Origin: Dictyostelium discoideum
Taxonomy: Eukaryota
Length of the DNA: 5,100 bases
Direction: 5' to 3'
NCBI GenBank assembly: GCA_000004695.1
Contig: CH709170.1
Span: 1-5,100, forward strand
The notes beneath the pieces are model-generated. The model made no database searches. It was not told the DNA's origin and saw only the letters and a list, made by a program, of their open reading frames with translations. Shown in pieces: positions 1 to 5,100 of this stretch; positions within the stretch are counted from its first letter, which is position 1; each line of letters starts with the position of its first letter. The position numbers were made by a program, and so were the translations under genes.

Positions 1-96
1 TTCTTTTAACATTCTAAAAAATTATCTTAAATATTTGGGAAATTCAAATAAATAAATGTTATTCATAATATATATATATATATGATAATATAAATT
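1..96 (-). mobile_element. DIRS-1-type left ITR, outer ~85 bp only (partial, continues past the window start); belongs to a further minus-strand copy nested into ORF1 of the next copy
   Basis: The reverse complement of 14-96 matches the outer end of the ITR at 4684-4770 (atttatattatcat(at)n attatgaataacatttatttatttgaatttcccaaatatttaagataattttttagaatgtt). The match breaks at nt ~13, inside the heat-shock element (gttaaaagaa versus gttctagaac). The ITR terminus (tgataatataaat, 83-95) abuts unrelated sequence at 97. Confidence 0.75.
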
Positions 97-782
97 GGTA
101 AGAGTACTTCAGAACCATAGATTTCTTTTGCGATGTTGTTACGACGGACACGACTAAGCGATGCTTGAGCATTAACAGCTAAGACGATTGCACTCTGAGT
201 TAAGTAACTAATAAGTTCTACATCGACATTAGAGCTATCAGATGATAACATACTTGACATGAGAAGCAAAGGTTTCAAGCTATCGTTGATTCGCTTTTCG
301 ACAATCAACAAGTCAGTATCATTGTTCTTGACGTTGGATGATACAGTAATACCTTCAGGTGTACCGAATGGAGCGACATTCACTTGGAAGTTAGATGGAA
401 AGTTGAATACTTTATTCAATTCGGATATCTCATCTTTCTTGAGGATACATTCTTCTTCGACGAGTAAACCTTGATTGTTTACCATATGTTTGTACTGACC
501 AAGTAAGGTATCGGATAATTGATAATCGGTTGGAACTTCGACATTGTTACTTGATTCATCTTCACTTTGTTCATTCTCGGTGTCAGAGTTATCATGAGAA
601 GGTTGGCTACTTGAATTGGTATTAGAAGAGAACATAGGTTCTTTCATGAATCTTGTAAAGGCTAAGGAAAGGTTGTTGATTTGATCTTCCATTGATTTCA
701 TTCTTAAATCAAAGGATTCAGCGCTATTAGAGGCAGAGGTACTACTACTAGAGGCTTCGTTATTATTAACAGTGGTAGACAT
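97..782 (-). CDS. DIRS-1-type ORF1 (putative Gag-like protein), 5' portion (~228 codons). It is 3'-truncated at ~97 by the nested ITR; the track ORF 63-782 reads through into ITR (AT)n as ...LLPIYIIIYIYIL.
   Basis: ATG at 782 lies 120 bp downstream of the inner end of a left-ITR copy in the same orientation, which is the position of ORF1 in DIRS-1. The product is Ser/Asn/Asp-rich with an acidic N-terminus. The frame is open on one strand only; the opposite-strand ORF 259-474 is a shadow. Confidence 0.6.
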
Positions 783-1056
783 ATTTTATTGTTGATATCT
801 AAAATTATAATATGAGAAAAAAAATAATAATAAAAATTAATAAAGAGAAATAATTATTTGTATAAAATTTGTGTGTGTGTGTATCTTAAATATATATAGG
901 AGGAATTCCCAAATAAAATAAATCAAATTGTTTTAGTTTTTTGTGCCACTATTTATACGTTTTTATTTTCTTAAAAATTTCGCAAAACTCAAAAAAAATA
1001 AGAGTTTTCGACCCTTTACAACTTTGTGCATAGTGTCGGTTCGGAATTTTTCAGAG
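783..1056 (-). mobile_element. DIRS-1-type left end: 5' leader (783-901) plus the inner ~155 bp of the left ITR (902-1056). The outer ~175 bp, including the heat-shock element, is missing.
   Basis: This is the reverse complement of 4862-5100, with 1-2 mismatches per 60 bp. It includes GGAATTCC (902-909) and the (TG)6 microsatellite 870-882, which corresponds to (CA)6 at 5035-5046. Identity stops abruptly at 1056/1057 (..ggaatttttcag|agaaagtaaagc.. versus ..ggaatttttcag|ttttttcgacc..). Confidence 0.8.
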
Positions 1057-1083
1057 AAAGTAAAGCAGGGGAAAACTATATTT

Positions 1084-1086
<3 letters not shown>

Positions 1087-1132
<46 letters not shown>
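1087..1132. repeat. poly(dA)46 homopolymer
   Basis: Uninterrupted A run 1087-1132, preceded by 30 nt of unique sequence that follows the truncated ITR. Confidence 0.95.
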
Positions 1133-1134
<2 letters not shown>

Positions 1135-1159
1135 AATAATTTTGAAAATTTTGATTATA

Positions 1160-1418
1160 TTAATTTATACACACAATTTCATTACCAAAAAATACTTGGT
1201 TATCGGAAATATAAACTTTAAGATTGTGGTTTTTTTCACCTTTTGAATAAATGGCTAAACTGTCAGCTACTTTTGTTCTTGTGTTACTTTTCTTATTACT
1301 TACCCATTTCGTTAACCTTTCAAAAATATTTTGACTGGTACAATCTTCGTTACTACCACCAGCTTGTTTAATTATTCCAGTAATAAAGAAATTTGAAACC
1401 TATTTATTTAAATTTAAT

Positions 1419-1456
<38 letters not shown>

Positions 1457-1720
1457 ATTAATCTGGTAACATACATCGCCATCTGAATAGTATTTACTTT
1501 GACAAACTTTCTGAAGACTTTCGTATTCCAATATGTATGTTACACGTGGGTTTGTGGCTATTTGCACTGTTTCTTGGATTGGTGGAACAGTTGGCCTTGG
1601 AACTCTTCTAATTATTATTCTCTGGTTTTCCATTGGGTTTGGAGCATTTGCATTTCCTAATACATTACCTATTGACAAATTATTAAATGATTCATCTCCG
1701 ATAGAAATATTATTGTTTTA
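1160..1720 (-). pseudogene. Unassigned reading frame of about 186 codons on the minus strand with a single in-frame TAG (1400-1402) and a K10 tract encoded by the dT run. It is either a disrupted gene or an unusual exon.
   Basis: Track ORF 1400-1678(-) is ..NPRVTYILEYESLQKVCQSKYYSDGDVCYQINSL K10 LLNLNK*. The same frame continues after the TAG as VSNFFITGIIKQAGGSNEDCTSQNIFERLTKWVSNKKSNTRTKVADSLAIYSKGEKNHNLKVYISDNQVFFGNEIVCIN*, with stop at 1160-1162. Apart from the internal TAG there are no stops over ~560 nt of ~25% GC DNA, which is unlikely by chance. Codon usage is Dictyostelium-like (A/T third positions). No ATG start was found. Confidence 0.4.
1421..1451. repeat. poly(dT)31 homopolymer, opposed to the A46 run 288 bp upstream
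   Basis: Uninterrupted T run 1421-1451. It is read as K10 by the minus-strand frame. Confidence 0.95.
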
Positions 1721-1913
1721 TCTTCTTTGGATTGGTGATTGGTTAAAATCAGGTACATTACCATTCGGTGCTATAAAATTTGCAGATGAATTCATTTTAA
1801 AAAAATATGTATTGAAATCATTTTGGCTTTTTCAGTCTGCCCGAAAATGAAAAAAAAATAAAAAAAAAAATCATTTTTTACATAACAATGTAAAAATTAT
1901 GTAAAAAAGGTTT

Positions 1914-2360
1914 TTAATTTTTTAATTTTTTATTTTTTGAAGCCGAGAATTTATCGTGGCATTTGTAAATTATAAGGTAATTGGTATCATCAATTTGAAT
2001 TGGTATAACATTATTTAGAATATTATCATATGTAATATAATTTAATTCATTTGAAAGAAAATGGTATTTATTAAATTGGTCACCAACATATTTGTCAAAA
2101 TAATTTAATAATATTGCATGTTTTATTATGTTATCATCCATTTCAATCATTGATATTGAATTGATAATACCTGACCATCTACCTGAAAGTTCATTATCTG
2201 ATGCAACTTCAACTGCATCACCAACATTGTATATTTCTTTATTATTTTTAATTGATGAGTGAAAAGTTATATTTTTATAATTTTGAAATAATGAATCTAA
2301 TTTAATTTTTATGTTATCTAAATTATCTGGATTTTTTATTTTGTATCTGGCGTGGCGGAC
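1914..2360 (-). CDS. Unassigned AT-rich ORF of 148 codons, host-like and N/K/I/D-rich. No ATG before 2150, so it is probably a 5'-truncated exon or fragment that begins exactly at the compositional boundary.
   Basis: The minus-strand frame is open from the TAG at 2361-2363 down to the TAA at 1914-1916: VRHARYKIKNPDNLDNIKIKLDSLFQNYKNITFHSSIKNNKEIYNVGDAVEVASDNELSGRWSGIINSISMIEMDDNIIKHAILLNYFDKY...KNKKLKN*. The track lists only the ATG-initiated part 1914-2150. Confidence 0.4.
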   Translation of the reverse strand, partial: VRHARYKIKNPDNLDNIKIKLDSLFQNYKNITFHSSIKNNKEIYNVGDAVEVASDNELSGRWSGIINSISMIEMDDNIIKHAILLNYFDKYVGDQFNKYHFLSNELNYITYDNILNNVIPIQIDDTNYLIIYKCHDKFSASKNKKLKN

Positions 2361-2430
2361 CTATATGCTAAAGAATACACCAGTTTTTAGGGCATACCTT
2401 AAAAGTTTCGTAACAGCAAAACGATTATTG

Positions 2431-3355
2431 TCAGCAACCTAATCTAGTGCCCTGTACCCCCCTTATTGACTTAATTAGTAAAACGTCTACGATGGACTCA
2501 TGGCCATTAATAGCAACAGCTCCTAGTGCATAATTAATTCTTTTTTGGAAATGGCCATTTTCAACAGCACATTCCAATGCATCATTGATGTTTTTTTGCA
2601 TTGCTCCGACTAATAAGGGTTTAGTAGTACATACAAATCATCTGCTAGGCAGTCTGCAGTAGTTGGGTGATTATTGCTAATAGCCAATTTTAATGCCTCC
2701 CACCTATCTTCTGCTGTAGATGATTTGTCAAAGAGGAACGCAACAATGGCATCATGGCCAAGCATAGCAGTATTTTTTATTTCCTTACCCATTTGTGCTT
2801 CTGGCATCTTTCATAGGAAGAGTTTAATAATCGAGAGGTAACCATGCGCCACATCATTTCAGAATGCTATATTGTGTTGTTCCGTTACCTTATTCGAATC
2901 TAACATGAACTTTACAATAGATATGCGCTCATTCTTGAAAGAAGATCGGGAAGAGCGATTCGGCTATGGTATCTTCTGTTGCCCTATCTAATAAGAACTC
3001 CACGATAAAAATAATTATTCTGTATAGTCGCGATTACGAGGGCCCTATTTATATTTTCTAGTGTAGCATTATTATCTAAACTTAACTTTTGTTCTACAAT
3101 AGAAAGATCATTGTTTCTATCTGCGAAATGTAGTGGTGTTTGTCCAAGATAGTCTTTTGCATTTACATCAGCTCCCTTGTTAAGGAGGAGTTGTATGGCT
3201 CCTTCTAATCTAGCATAATGGAGCGGAGTTCTGCCTCGATGATCTGTTTTGGTTATATTTTCACCTTTTTCTATAGTCAGTTTTACTTTTTCTACTGTTT
3301 GAGTTGTTATCGCTATTTTGATCAAAAAGTTTGATCTCGGTTCGAATTTTGTCTC
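2431..3355 (-). pseudogene. Ankyrin-repeat protein pseudogene with at least 3 frameshifts or stops, in a block of higher GC (~38-40% versus ~22-25% around it)
   Basis: Four ankyrin-repeat segments lie on the minus strand in different frames. Segment 1: HRGRTPLHYARLEGAIQLLLNKGADVNAKDYLGQTPLHFADRNNDLSIVEQKL (track ORF 2984-3325, TTG start is an artefact). Segment 2: ERISIVKFMLDSNKVTEQHNIAF (~2855-2925). Segment 3: AMLGHDAIVAFLFDK..ADCLADDLYVLL (2610-2807). Segment 4: NDALECAVENGHFQKRINYALGAVAINGHESIVDVLL (2434-2592). Segments 3 and 4 are joined only by a 1-nt frame change near 2610-2640. No single frame spans them. Confidence 0.6.
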
Positions 3356-3423
3356 TCAACAGGTTGATTCTTAAAAATCAAGTCTAAACTCATTGGATGC
3401 TTCGTGACTATATCTATATATTT

Positions 3424-3775
3424 AATTAAAAATTTAATTTATTAAATTATATTTTATATTAAATATATATATATATATTATGAATATCATTTATTCATTT
3501 GAATTTCCCAAATATTTAAGATAATTTTTTAGAATGTTCTAGAACATTCGAAGAATAAAAAATTTTCGAAAGAAAAGTAAAAATTTCGAACCGGCACAAT
3601 GACGCGATCATTGTGTAAGGTCGAAAAAACTGAAAAATTCCGAACCGACACTATGCAAAAAGTTGTGAAGGGTCGAAAACTCTTAATTTTTTGAGTTTTG
3701 CGAAATTTTTAAGAAAATAAAAACGTATAAATAGTGGCACTAAAAACTAAAAAACAATTTGATTTATGGAATTCC
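3424..3775 (-). mobile_element. DIRS-1-type right ITR (352 bp). It comprises a ~39-nt terminal extension absent from the left ITR (3424-3462), followed by ~313 bp shared with the left ITR. A 24-bp right-specific spacer (3776-3799) follows.
   Basis: 3463-3775 aligns with 4688-5015 at a few percent divergence, with one 8-nt indel. The shared part ends at GGAATTCC (3768-3775). The outer 57 nt are complemented by the ICR. Confidence 0.8.
3532..3553 (+). promoter_or_regulatory. Heat-shock element in the right ITR, oriented to drive plus-strand transcription, i.e. antisense to the YR gene
   Basis: GAAtgTTCtaGAAcaTTCgaAG is four contiguous alternating nGAAn/nTTCn units. A TATAAATAG is present ~190 bp downstream at 3725-3733. 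Confidence 0.65.
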
Positions 3776-3799
3776 GACTAAGTGCGGATGGGATGGGAC

Positions 3800-3884
3800 T
3801 AATATATATATATATATTTAATATAAAATATAATTTAATAAATTAAATTTTTAATTTATATTATCATATATATATATATATATA
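3800..3884 (-). other. DIRS-1 internal complementary region (ICR), 85 bp: complement of the left-ITR 5' terminus followed by the complement of the right-ITR 3' terminus
   Basis: 3800-3856 is the exact reverse complement of 3424-3480 (57/57), which is the outer tip of the right ITR. 3857-3884 (ttatattatcat(at)n attatgaa) equals the first ~30 nt of the left ITR (4684-4715). It lies immediately after the YR stop at 3885-3887. Confidence 0.8.
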
Positions 3885-4685
3885 TTATGAAATTTGGACG
3901 ACAGTATTTAAGAAACCACCAGATTTTTCACCAATGATTCTTTTATCGTAGAAGGTATCTACAGTATCATTTGATTTCCAACGACCCATCTTCTTGACAA
4001 CGTGGAACGGAACGTTATTGGACAACAGCAGAGAAGCCATAGCGGAACGGGTAGAGTGAGATTTGAACTTGGCAATATCAATGCCTGACTTTGAGAGTGT
4101 TGATAATACAATTGAATTAATATCATTAACTTGGAGCGGTTCACCCTCATTCTTAATAAAGACAGAGTCACCCGAATGGGGCTTTCTTCTTCCTTTAGAG
4201 GCTCTAAGGTATGTTGCAAGGTGGCGAACAGGGCATACTTGAGAGTTTGTATCATCTAACCATGTTAATTCTAAGATTGAAACAACACCACTTCTTTGTT
4301 CTTTAGCATTAATAACTGGACCTTTGATTGAGTCAGTAGTATTAATGAGACCTTTGAACGACCACTTCACCAAGTCTGATGATCTTGCTAAACCAAACTT
4401 TTACAGAGAACAAGTGTCTTGTTTAATAGCGCAGTGTATGTGTACTTAGGGATGACTTTGATAGTAGATAAGTGCTTGAATACTTGGTTTGCATCCCATA
4501 TCTCTTTATACTTTGCAGATGAAGGACGCCACTTGTGAATACCAGTCATTATTCTTGTGATGAATGGATCATTAACAACATCAGTTTGATTCCTAACTGG
4601 AGCTATATACTTTGAGAGTGGAAGGTTCCCAAGACTTCATTAACAGCTCAGCTGTTTTTGTATTTGTTGTACGAGCGAAGGACAT
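3885..4685 (-). pseudogene. DIRS-type tyrosine recombinase (YR), near full length (~266 codons) but split over three frames
   Basis: Frame A (4685-4596): MSFARTTNTKTAELLMKSWEPSTLKVYSSS*. Frame B (4636-4401): ..IMTGIHKWRPSSAKYKEIWDANQVFKHLSTIKVIPKYTYTALLNKTLVLCKSLV*. Frame C (4400-3885; track ORF 3885-4373): FGLARSSDLVKW..SQVCPVRHLATYL..KFKSHSTRSAMASLLLSNNVPFHVVKKMGRWKSNDTVDTFYDK. These contain the YR hallmarks: N-terminal TLKxY, the L..K..LL.L....R.SDL box (broken by the second frameshift), CPV..L..YL, and the catalytic H-x-x-R ... GRW ... Y. Confidence 0.8.
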
Positions 4686-4764
4686 TTATATTATCATATA
4701 TATATATATATTATGAATAACATTTATTTATTTGAATTTCCCAAATATTTAAGATAATTTTTTA

Positions 4765-4786
4765 GAATGTTCTAGAACATTCGAAG
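4765..4786 (+). promoter_or_regulatory. Heat-shock element of the left ITR (sense promoter of the downstream element)
   Basis: gaatgttctagaacattcgaag is identical to the HSE at 3532-3553, with perfect GAA/TTC pentamer phasing. Confidence 0.65.
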
Positions 4787-4958
4787 AATAAAAAATTTTC
4801 GAAAGAAAAGTAAAAATTTCGAACCGGCACAATGACGCGATCATTGCACAAGGTCGAAAAAACTGAAAAATTCCGAACCGACACTATGCACAAAGTTGTG
4901 AAGGGTCGAAAACTCTTATTTTTTTGAGTTTTGCGAAATTTTTAAGAAAATAAAAACG

Positions 4959-4967
4959 TATAAATAG
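4959..4967 (+). promoter_or_regulatory. TATA-like box (TATAAATAG) inside the left ITR
   Basis: It lies in a GC-poor context ~45 bp upstream of the ITR inner end. Its distance from the HSE (~175 bp) is longer than in typical heat-shock promoters, so the assignment is tentative. Confidence 0.3.
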
Positions 4968-5100
4968 TGGCACTAAAAACTAAAAACAATTTGATTTATT
5001 TTATTTGGGAATTCCTCCTATATATATTTAAGATACACACACACACAAATTTTATACAAATAATTATTTCTCTTTATTAATTTTTAATATTATTATTTTT

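Follow-up and report, generated by a model that had tools for sequence, protein, structure and literature searches.

Within the first 5,100 nt of contig CH709170.1 of Dictyostelium discoideum (GCA_000004695.1; hereafter the window), a short segment at the end of a tyrosine recombinase open reading frame (ORF) was proposed to be complementary to the outer tips of both inverted terminal repeats (ITRs) of a retrotransposon, and the alignments to the two tips agree with this proposal. The question raised by this locus is whether the segment is DIRS-1's internal complementary region (ICR), through which the ends of the element are rebuilt during copying, or has a more trivial origin in A/T-rich or nested sequence. 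The comparisons described here make the first reading, the DIRS-1 ICR, very nearly certain.

The window was dissected by comparison with three D. discoideum loci, termed L001, L002 and L003. Locus L003, situated 46-62 kb from the end of a 6.43-Mb chromosome of a sister strain (GCA_054883475.1, CM142509.1), matches window positions 8-5100 with 99.6% identity. The comparison resolves the window into four nested DIRS-1 fragments, B, C, D and A (Table 1), with non-DIRS-1 sequence between C and D (1055-3423). Two insertion junctions are present: fragment B cuts element C at 95/96 and fragment A cuts element D at 4683/4684. Positions 8-95 of fragment B are the 100% reverse complement of 4684-4771 in fragment A. 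Element C consists of the inner part of its left ITR, followed by the leader and by ~228 N-terminal codons of ORF1/GAG (minus-strand ORF 63-782, ATG at 782-780), and is 98.3% identical to positions 179-1137 of the full-length copy of B in the sister strain; a Pfam search of this ORF1/GAG part returned no match. The left ITR of element A (4684-4999, 316 nt) consists of a 12-nt divergent tip and 304 nt of conserved sequence and starts with ATT (4684-4686) at a target ATT; in its entirety, the fragment is 99.0% identical to B positions 1-415. No RT was found in the window, and RVT_1 and RT_RNaseH matches were obtained in the full-length sister copy and in neighboring copies of L002 and L003.

Table 1. 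Coordinates of the DIRS-1 fragments and of the features of element D within the window.
Feature	Position	Strand	Description
Element B	1-95	minus	Outer 95 nt of left ITR, inserted into ORF1 of element C; terminus at 95
Element C	96-1054	minus	5'-truncated DIRS-1 without the outer 178 nt of the left ITR
Element D	3424-4683	minus	Defective copy: recombinase 3' end, ICR, right terminus
Right extension (rE)	3424-3451	minus	Outermost 28 nt of right terminus (from gapped ITR alignments)
Palindrome in right tip	3433-3446	minus	14 nt, TTTAATTTATTAAA, TTTAAT-NN-ATTAAA
Divergent part of right ITR	3452-3462	minus	TTTTATATTAA, versus ATTTATATTATC in left ITR
Conserved part of right ITR	3463-3767	minus	305 nt; begins with the 18-nt ATATATATATATATATTA
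Palindrome in ITR	3532-3549		Perfect, 18 nt, GAATGTTCTAGAACATTC
Spacer	3768-3799	minus	32 nt, G+C-richer (GGAATTCCGACTAAGTGCGGATGGGATGGGAC), between inner end of right ITR and ICR
Right half of ICR (rICR)	3800-3856	minus	57 nt, perfect complement of right terminus 3424-3480
Overlap of ICR halves	3854-3856		ATT on plus strand, AAT in element sense; "circular junction"
Left half of ICR (lICR)	3854-3891	minus	In element sense, pairs with the 34 nt at the start of a left ITR
ORF remnant with tyrosine recombinase 3' end	3885-4683	minus	From ORF list, Pfam and alignment of D with B
Element A	4684-5100	plus	Left ITR and leader of another DIRS-1 copy, inserted into D

The coding remnant of element D identifies the kind of enzyme next to the segment. 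The minus-strand ORF 3885-4373 matches the Pfam family Phage_integrase (PF00589; E = 1.6e-10, 41.5 bits vs. a cutoff of 27.1), and its translation contains the HSTR and GRW...Y motifs. The named homologs are exclusively from Dictyostelium, and all 111 database relatives derive from this genus, mostly from D. discoideum, with up to 96% identity. Upstream of 4373, the frame is broken by frameshifts and stop codons, and 161 bp near 4596 that are present in the intact copy (B positions 3499-3659) are missing.

The right half of the segment was compared directly with the right terminus, and the perfect 57-nt reverse complementarity of 3800-3856 and 3424-3480 was reproduced (57 of 57 positions); the match stops on both sides and does not extend by a single further base. 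It covers three parts of the right end: the right extension with its 28 nt, the divergent part of the ITR with 11 nt, and the 18-nt motif ATATATATATATATATTA. Since both arms consist entirely of A and T (28 A, 29 T) and include a 16-nt TA run, and since many A/T-tract "inverted repeats" occur in the window, it could be argued that the pairing is a generic palindrome, a low-complexity coincidence of the A/T-rich Dictyostelium genome devoid of any specific role. Composition-matched shuffles speak against such a coincidence. Words with mono- or dinucleotide periodicity were removed, and perfect inverted repeats were scored by their maximum length: in 3401-3900, the observed 57 nt compare with at most 16 nt in 300 dinucleotide shuffles, and 1000 shuffles confined to the two A/T-only blocks reached at most 23 nt. 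Moreover, 41 of the 57 nt do not belong to the TA run. At the corresponding two positions of six independent DIRS-1 copies, the sequence is present without a single base change, and in 46 kb of D. discoideum sequence the right-tip motif occurs 14 times, seven times in an ICR and seven times at a right terminus, and nowhere else. On the grounds of the shuffles and of this position-specific conservation, the generic palindrome was rejected, and its probability is considered negligible. Folding of 3415-3900 as single-stranded DNA yielded a long stem between the rICR and the right terminus (z = -12.3).

The left half of the segment was originally placed at 3857-3884 as a copy of the left-ITR tip. 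The copy is real, but its register was off by three nucleotides, as it starts at 3854 and ends at 3891. The left-ITR tip ATTTATATTATC... (read from 4684 onward, or in reverse complement from 95 downward) matches the segment from 3854 on, and 3854-3881 equals 4684-4711 perfectly over 28 nt. After a 4-nt (TA)2 insertion, the match picks up again and continues through ...TTATGAA at 3891, which corresponds to 4717; the extra (TA)2 accounts for the length of 38 nt of the lICR in copy D. The entire ICR of this copy thus spans 3800-3891 and measures 92 nt in place of the 85 bp (3800-3884) first assigned to it. Likewise, it does not directly follow the recombinase stop codon, as had been assumed, but overlaps the last 7 nt of the ORF, so that the stop codon (3885-3887) is located inside the lICR. 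The junction of the two halves, ...AAATTTTTA-ATT-TATATTATC..., adjoins the recombinase stop codon in six independent copies (element D of the window, one copy in L003 and two copies each in L001 and L002, with the L003 strain ortholog of D not counted separately). The shared ATT is the presumed crossover site of the tyrosine recombinase.

The two terminal repeats were compared as well. Over 305 nt, the left ITR of A (4684-4999) is 98% identical to the right terminus of D (3424-3767), and in the window this similarity appears as a direct repeat (3463-3753 equals 4696-4986 at 98%). The right extension is missing from the left ITR, and its sole complement is the ICR. A right-terminal extension of ~39 nt had been noted; this value holds for an alignment without gaps, but introduction of one gap reduces it to 28 nt (3424-3451) followed by a divergent stretch of 11-12 nt, which shares TTTATATTA with the left tip. 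The 18-nt motif ATATATATATATATATTA is common to all four components, i.e., both ITRs and both ICR halves. The palindrome GAATGTTCTAGAACATTC is found inside every ITR copy (also at 4765-4782 and, in reverse complement, near 10-27), and its TTCTAGAA core presumably represents a sequence resembling a heat-shock element. A heat-shock promoter in the ITR was reportedly described in the 1984 DIRS-1 papers. Further inside the ITR, positions 3585-3690 (and 4818-4922) comprise a pair of imperfect direct repeats, each about 45 nt long (TTCGAACCGGCACAATGACGCGATCATTGTGTAAGGTCGAAAA / TTCCGAACCGACACTATGCAAAAAGTTGTGAAGGGTCGAAAA) and each with a short hairpin when folded as DNA.

The sister strain carries element B at full length (L003:11287-16112, 4826 bp), and its first 95 nt correspond to window positions 95-1. 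Its ITRs are inverted and identical over their shared part of roughly 315 nt, with the 28-nt extension on the right one, and it contains three long ORFs of 335, 1033 and 608 aa; this copy, which is itself nested in ORF1 of another copy, is probably intact and young. It carries the identical 57-nt rICR. Together with 34 nt complementary to the left tip and after subtraction of the shared AAT, its ICR amounts to 88 nt, all of them perfectly matched. Copy B bears directly on the possibility that the segment is a nesting scar, formed when a right-terminus fragment came to abut a left-terminus fragment of another copy, or a tandem or circle-junction relic, by chance beside the recombinase gene of this rearranged centromeric region. 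Four DIRS-1 fragments are after all nested in the window, with insertion junctions at two places, and head-to-tail termini would give exactly ...TTTTTA-ATT-TATATT.... A scar does not account for the same 57 + 34 nt extent in every copy, always over the recombinase stop codon, nor for the presence of the segment in a full-length 4826-bp element with intact ORFs; in addition, deletion of the ICR abolishes retrotransposition (PMC7192593). For the family, an origin as nesting scar was therefore rejected on the basis of constant extent and position and presence in the intact element, and it is regarded as highly improbable. Because of its frameshifts, the 161-bp deletion, the insertion of A and the (TA)2 that breaks the lICR match, copy D is dead and its ICR is a fossil and not a working part.

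The assignment to DIRS-1 (Tdd-1), the founding DIRS element, which was described in the same species as the window (Cappello, Handelsman & Lodish 1985; PMC7192593, PMC5633606), is inferred from this species match and from the agreement with published measures, which concern the 88-nt ICR, the length of about 4.8 kb, the ITR of 316 nt and the place of the terminal hairpin. The published DIRS-1 ICR of 88 bp is split into 33 + 55 nt (PMC7192593), while another study gives 58 + 33 nt complementary to the ICR (PMC3950715); copy B shows 34 and 57 nt complementary to the left and right tips. Divergent and conserved ITR parts of 12/304 nt are listed for a D. discoideum element (PMC3266345) and equal the 12 nt and 304-305 nt obtained here. 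Further features in common are ITRs of about 316-344 nt, a tyrosine recombinase ORF that ends in the ICR, the right extension and the insertion of copies into one another close to the end of a chromosome. There is no substantial difference; the intact sister copy measures 4826 bp vs. the published 4814 bp, and copy D is a degenerate fragment. The prediction that the ICR as such identifies DIRS-1 arrived at the right element, but the combination of ITR and ICR marks the whole DIRS1-like superfamily (PMC3266345), and the species call rests on sequence identity.

Element ends were examined by comparison of flanking sequences. The right boundary lies after ...TTTTTAATT in the window, L001, L002 and L003, with flanks that differ immediately beyond it, and the left boundary lies before ATTTATATT in seven tip occurrences representing six independent copies. 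Copy D terminates in AAT on the plus strand (ATT in element sense; 3424-3426). The termini originally set at 3424 and 4684 agree with the flanks, but the terminus of fragment B is at 95 and not 96, and position 3857 within the ICR corresponds to 4687 and not to 4684. Nor can the ends be fixed "to the base," as had been stated: because the ICR halves overlap by 3 nt (3854-3856) and the target contributes the same ATT, their position is settled no more precisely than to within the shared trinucleotide. Several insertions illustrate this. In uninterrupted ORF1 copies, the target of B reads TTACCA-ATT-AAGATC in four of five cases compared, with ATA in the fifth. In L003, both junctions of the B insertion are visible and read TTACCA-ATT-TATATT...TTTTTA-ATT-AAGATC, while the ICR holds a single ATT between TTTTTA and TATATT. 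For element A, compared at its left junction only, three uninterrupted copies of the target show GAAGGAC-ATT-ACATGAG with one ATT. A third element, in L002, was inserted at ATC (CACTT-ATC-TACTA), with ATT at its left boundary and ATC at its right boundary. Judged by these sequences, one of the two terminal trinucleotides is derived from the target. Insertion at a single trinucleotide agrees with the prediction of a tyrosine recombinase crossover, and DIRS1-like elements are described as having a 3-bp circular junction and integrating without target-site duplication, with ATT as the commonest trinucleotide (PMC3266345). For a 3793-bp entry named "DIRS1-2," the same survey lists the junction as TTA/TAA and not ATT/AAT (PMC3266345). 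Against this listing, the ATT/AAT junction is backed by the flanks of every copy examined here; the entry possibly stems from another choice of element ends or from another subfamily.

How such an ICR would be used is outlined in a model dating back to 1985. The DIRS-1 transcript of ~4.5 kb lacks most of the left ITR (PMC7192593). According to the model (Cappello 1985), the inverted right ITR would serve as the template on which the 3' end of the cDNA is prolonged across the conserved ITR sequence; this end would then pair with the ICR, where the left-specific tip would be copied and the two ends would be juxtaposed. The 18-nt A/T motif ATATATATATATATATTA would provide a natural switch point for the pairing of cDNA and ICR. 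The product would be a circle that is made double-stranded and contains the junction ...TTTTTA-ATT-TATATT.... The tyrosine recombinase would then carry out a crossover between the ATT of the junction and a target trinucleotide that is ATT or similar to it, a step for which the insertion sites described above provide part of the evidence. Recombination at a shared trinucleotide would leave no further target-site duplication, and frequent targeting of DIRS-1 sequence itself would produce a nest such as the one in the window. The steps of template switching, splinting and ligation belong to the model and are deduced from it. Experimentally, a DIRS-1bsr[-ICR] construct produced cDNA but no integrants, i.e., retrotransposition failed after first-strand cDNA synthesis (PMC7192593). 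Extrachromosomal DIRS-1 cDNA was found to be mostly linear and single-stranded (PMC7192593); in the same 2020 study by Malicki, a circle junction was not amplifiable, and mainly linear cDNA was observed (PMC7192593).

An alternative assignment of the 57-bp pairing places its main role at the RNA level, either as a self-limiting duplex that feeds Dicer or in the positioning of a self-priming 3' hairpin, alongside or instead of the repair of cDNA ends. The transcript does hold almost all of the right ITR, the stem shows very high stability (as judged with DNA parameters), and duplexes of ICR and LTR were suggested to be Dicer substrates for RrpC-independent LTR small RNAs (Wiegand 2014; PMC3950715). 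A terminal palindrome is present as well: the motif TTTAATTTATTAAA in the right tip is the center of a wider 8+2+8 palindrome that spans 3431-3448. If 3424 is equated with the reference end, the 14-nt palindrome is located at the same distance from the end as a published hairpin (positions 4792-4805 in the 4814-bp reference), for which Poulter and Goodwin proposed a possible role as self-primer of reverse transcription (PMC7192593). A function in RNA leaves unexplained why the ICR contains a complement of the left tip, why its halves overlap on the integration trinucleotide and why a left tip different from the right ITR is restored faithfully; furthermore, the element without ICR still makes cDNA and fails afterwards (PMC7192593). 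It is thus unlikely that pairing in the transcript is the main role, and such a function may coexist with end repair.

A minor observation concerns the length of the A/T run in the lICR, which differs among the six independent copies (18, 20, 22, 24 and 26 nt; sites window 3857-3884, L001:690-717 and 6510-6545, L002:5470-5503 and 6524-6551, and L003:15650-15685). In the left-ITR tips, the run is always 18 nt (seven tip occurrences in six independent copies, as the tips at window position 4684 and L003 position 6709 are orthologs). The right terminus and rICR are less variable than the lICR run, in a small sample whose odd-run copies are degenerate. It is conceivable, but doubtful, that ATATATATATATATATTA is the actual template-switch point and that the TA-run length differences arose by replication slippage there and not by microsatellite drift after insertion. 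Plain microsatellite instability accounts for the TA-run data equally well, with a tiny sample in which the copies with odd runs are old and degenerate. If the variation were linked to replication, it would constitute a sequence footprint of an otherwise unobserved step of DIRS replication.

The arrangement seen here has relatives at several levels. DIRS1-like elements of fungi, molluscs, crustaceans, fish and amphibians share the order lITR - ORFs - lICR/rICR - rITR - rE (PMC3266345), the prevalence of ATT/ATT/AAT among terminal and junction trinucleotides (PMC3266345) and a short motif at the boundary of divergent and conserved sequence in both ITRs and both ICRs, which is represented here by ATATATATATATATATTA (PMC3266345). 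They differ in their unrelated DNA sequence and in the lengths of ITR, ICR and right extension, with ICR sums of 85-130 nt and right extensions of 9-75 nt (PMC3266345), and some of them carry a left extension, which is absent here (PMC3266345). The claim that this architecture is confined to one class of retrotransposons consequently stands at the level of the DIRS1-like superfamily, with the qualification that this superfamily is widespread in eukaryotes (PMC3266345). Ngaro, PAT-like and VIPER elements, which also belong to the order DIRS, likewise combine a tyrosine recombinase with side-by-side internal copies of terminal sequence that would allow a complete circle to be formed from a sub-genomic transcript. 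In contrast to DIRS-1, they possess split direct repeats (A1-B1 ... A2-B2) in place of ITRs and an inverted ICR (PMC7192593). LTR retrotransposons and retroviruses follow the same logic in their R-U5 and U3-R transfers, as internal redundancy restores the missing ends of the transcript by template switching. They differ in that their LTRs are direct, priming is by tRNA, the product is linear and double-stranded, the integrase is of the DDE type and the target-site duplication has a fixed length, whereas DIRS-1 employs inverted repeats, an internal splint and a tyrosine recombinase crossover at 3-nt homology.

As a discovery, the segment carries little weight, since the description of the ICR dates from 1985, a survey across eukaryotes followed in 2011, and experiments demonstrated in 2020 that it is essential (Malicki); the value of the segment lies in annotation. 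The ICR marks the window as part of a centromere-associated DIRS-1 cluster of D. discoideum and allows the four nested fragments to be delimited. The locus also provides clean natural cases of single-ATT insertion with both junctions visible, in agreement with the tyrosine recombinase crossover model. For curators, the overlap of the ICR halves by 3 nt implies that element ends are defined up to the shared trinucleotide.

The sequence between fragments C and D was also inspected. Scans of the whole window for tRNAs and Rfam families gave no matches, and the small ORFs of the middle region were without Pfam match apart from the Ank_2 domain described below. Fragment C stops abruptly at 1054, 31 nt before an A tract. 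This A47 tract (1086-1132) and a T28 tract (1424-1451) flank a region with minus-strand ORF pieces (about 1148-1783), and the sister-strain annotation places two hypothetical genes, without Pfam match, across 1148-2795. On the minus strand of 2431-3325, there are short ORFs in differing frames (2984-3325, 2610-2807 and 2431-2601) with 37-40% G+C. The first of these encodes ankyrin repeats (Pfam Ank_2, E = 2.6e-17). Its sole close relative is a 98% ortholog in another D. discoideum strain, and the next-best matches are ankyrin proteins with 40-50% identity that derive mostly from metagenomes, with some from fungi and bacteria. From its reading frames, 2431-3325 looks like a frameshifted ankyrin-repeat pseudogene between DIRS-1 fragments.
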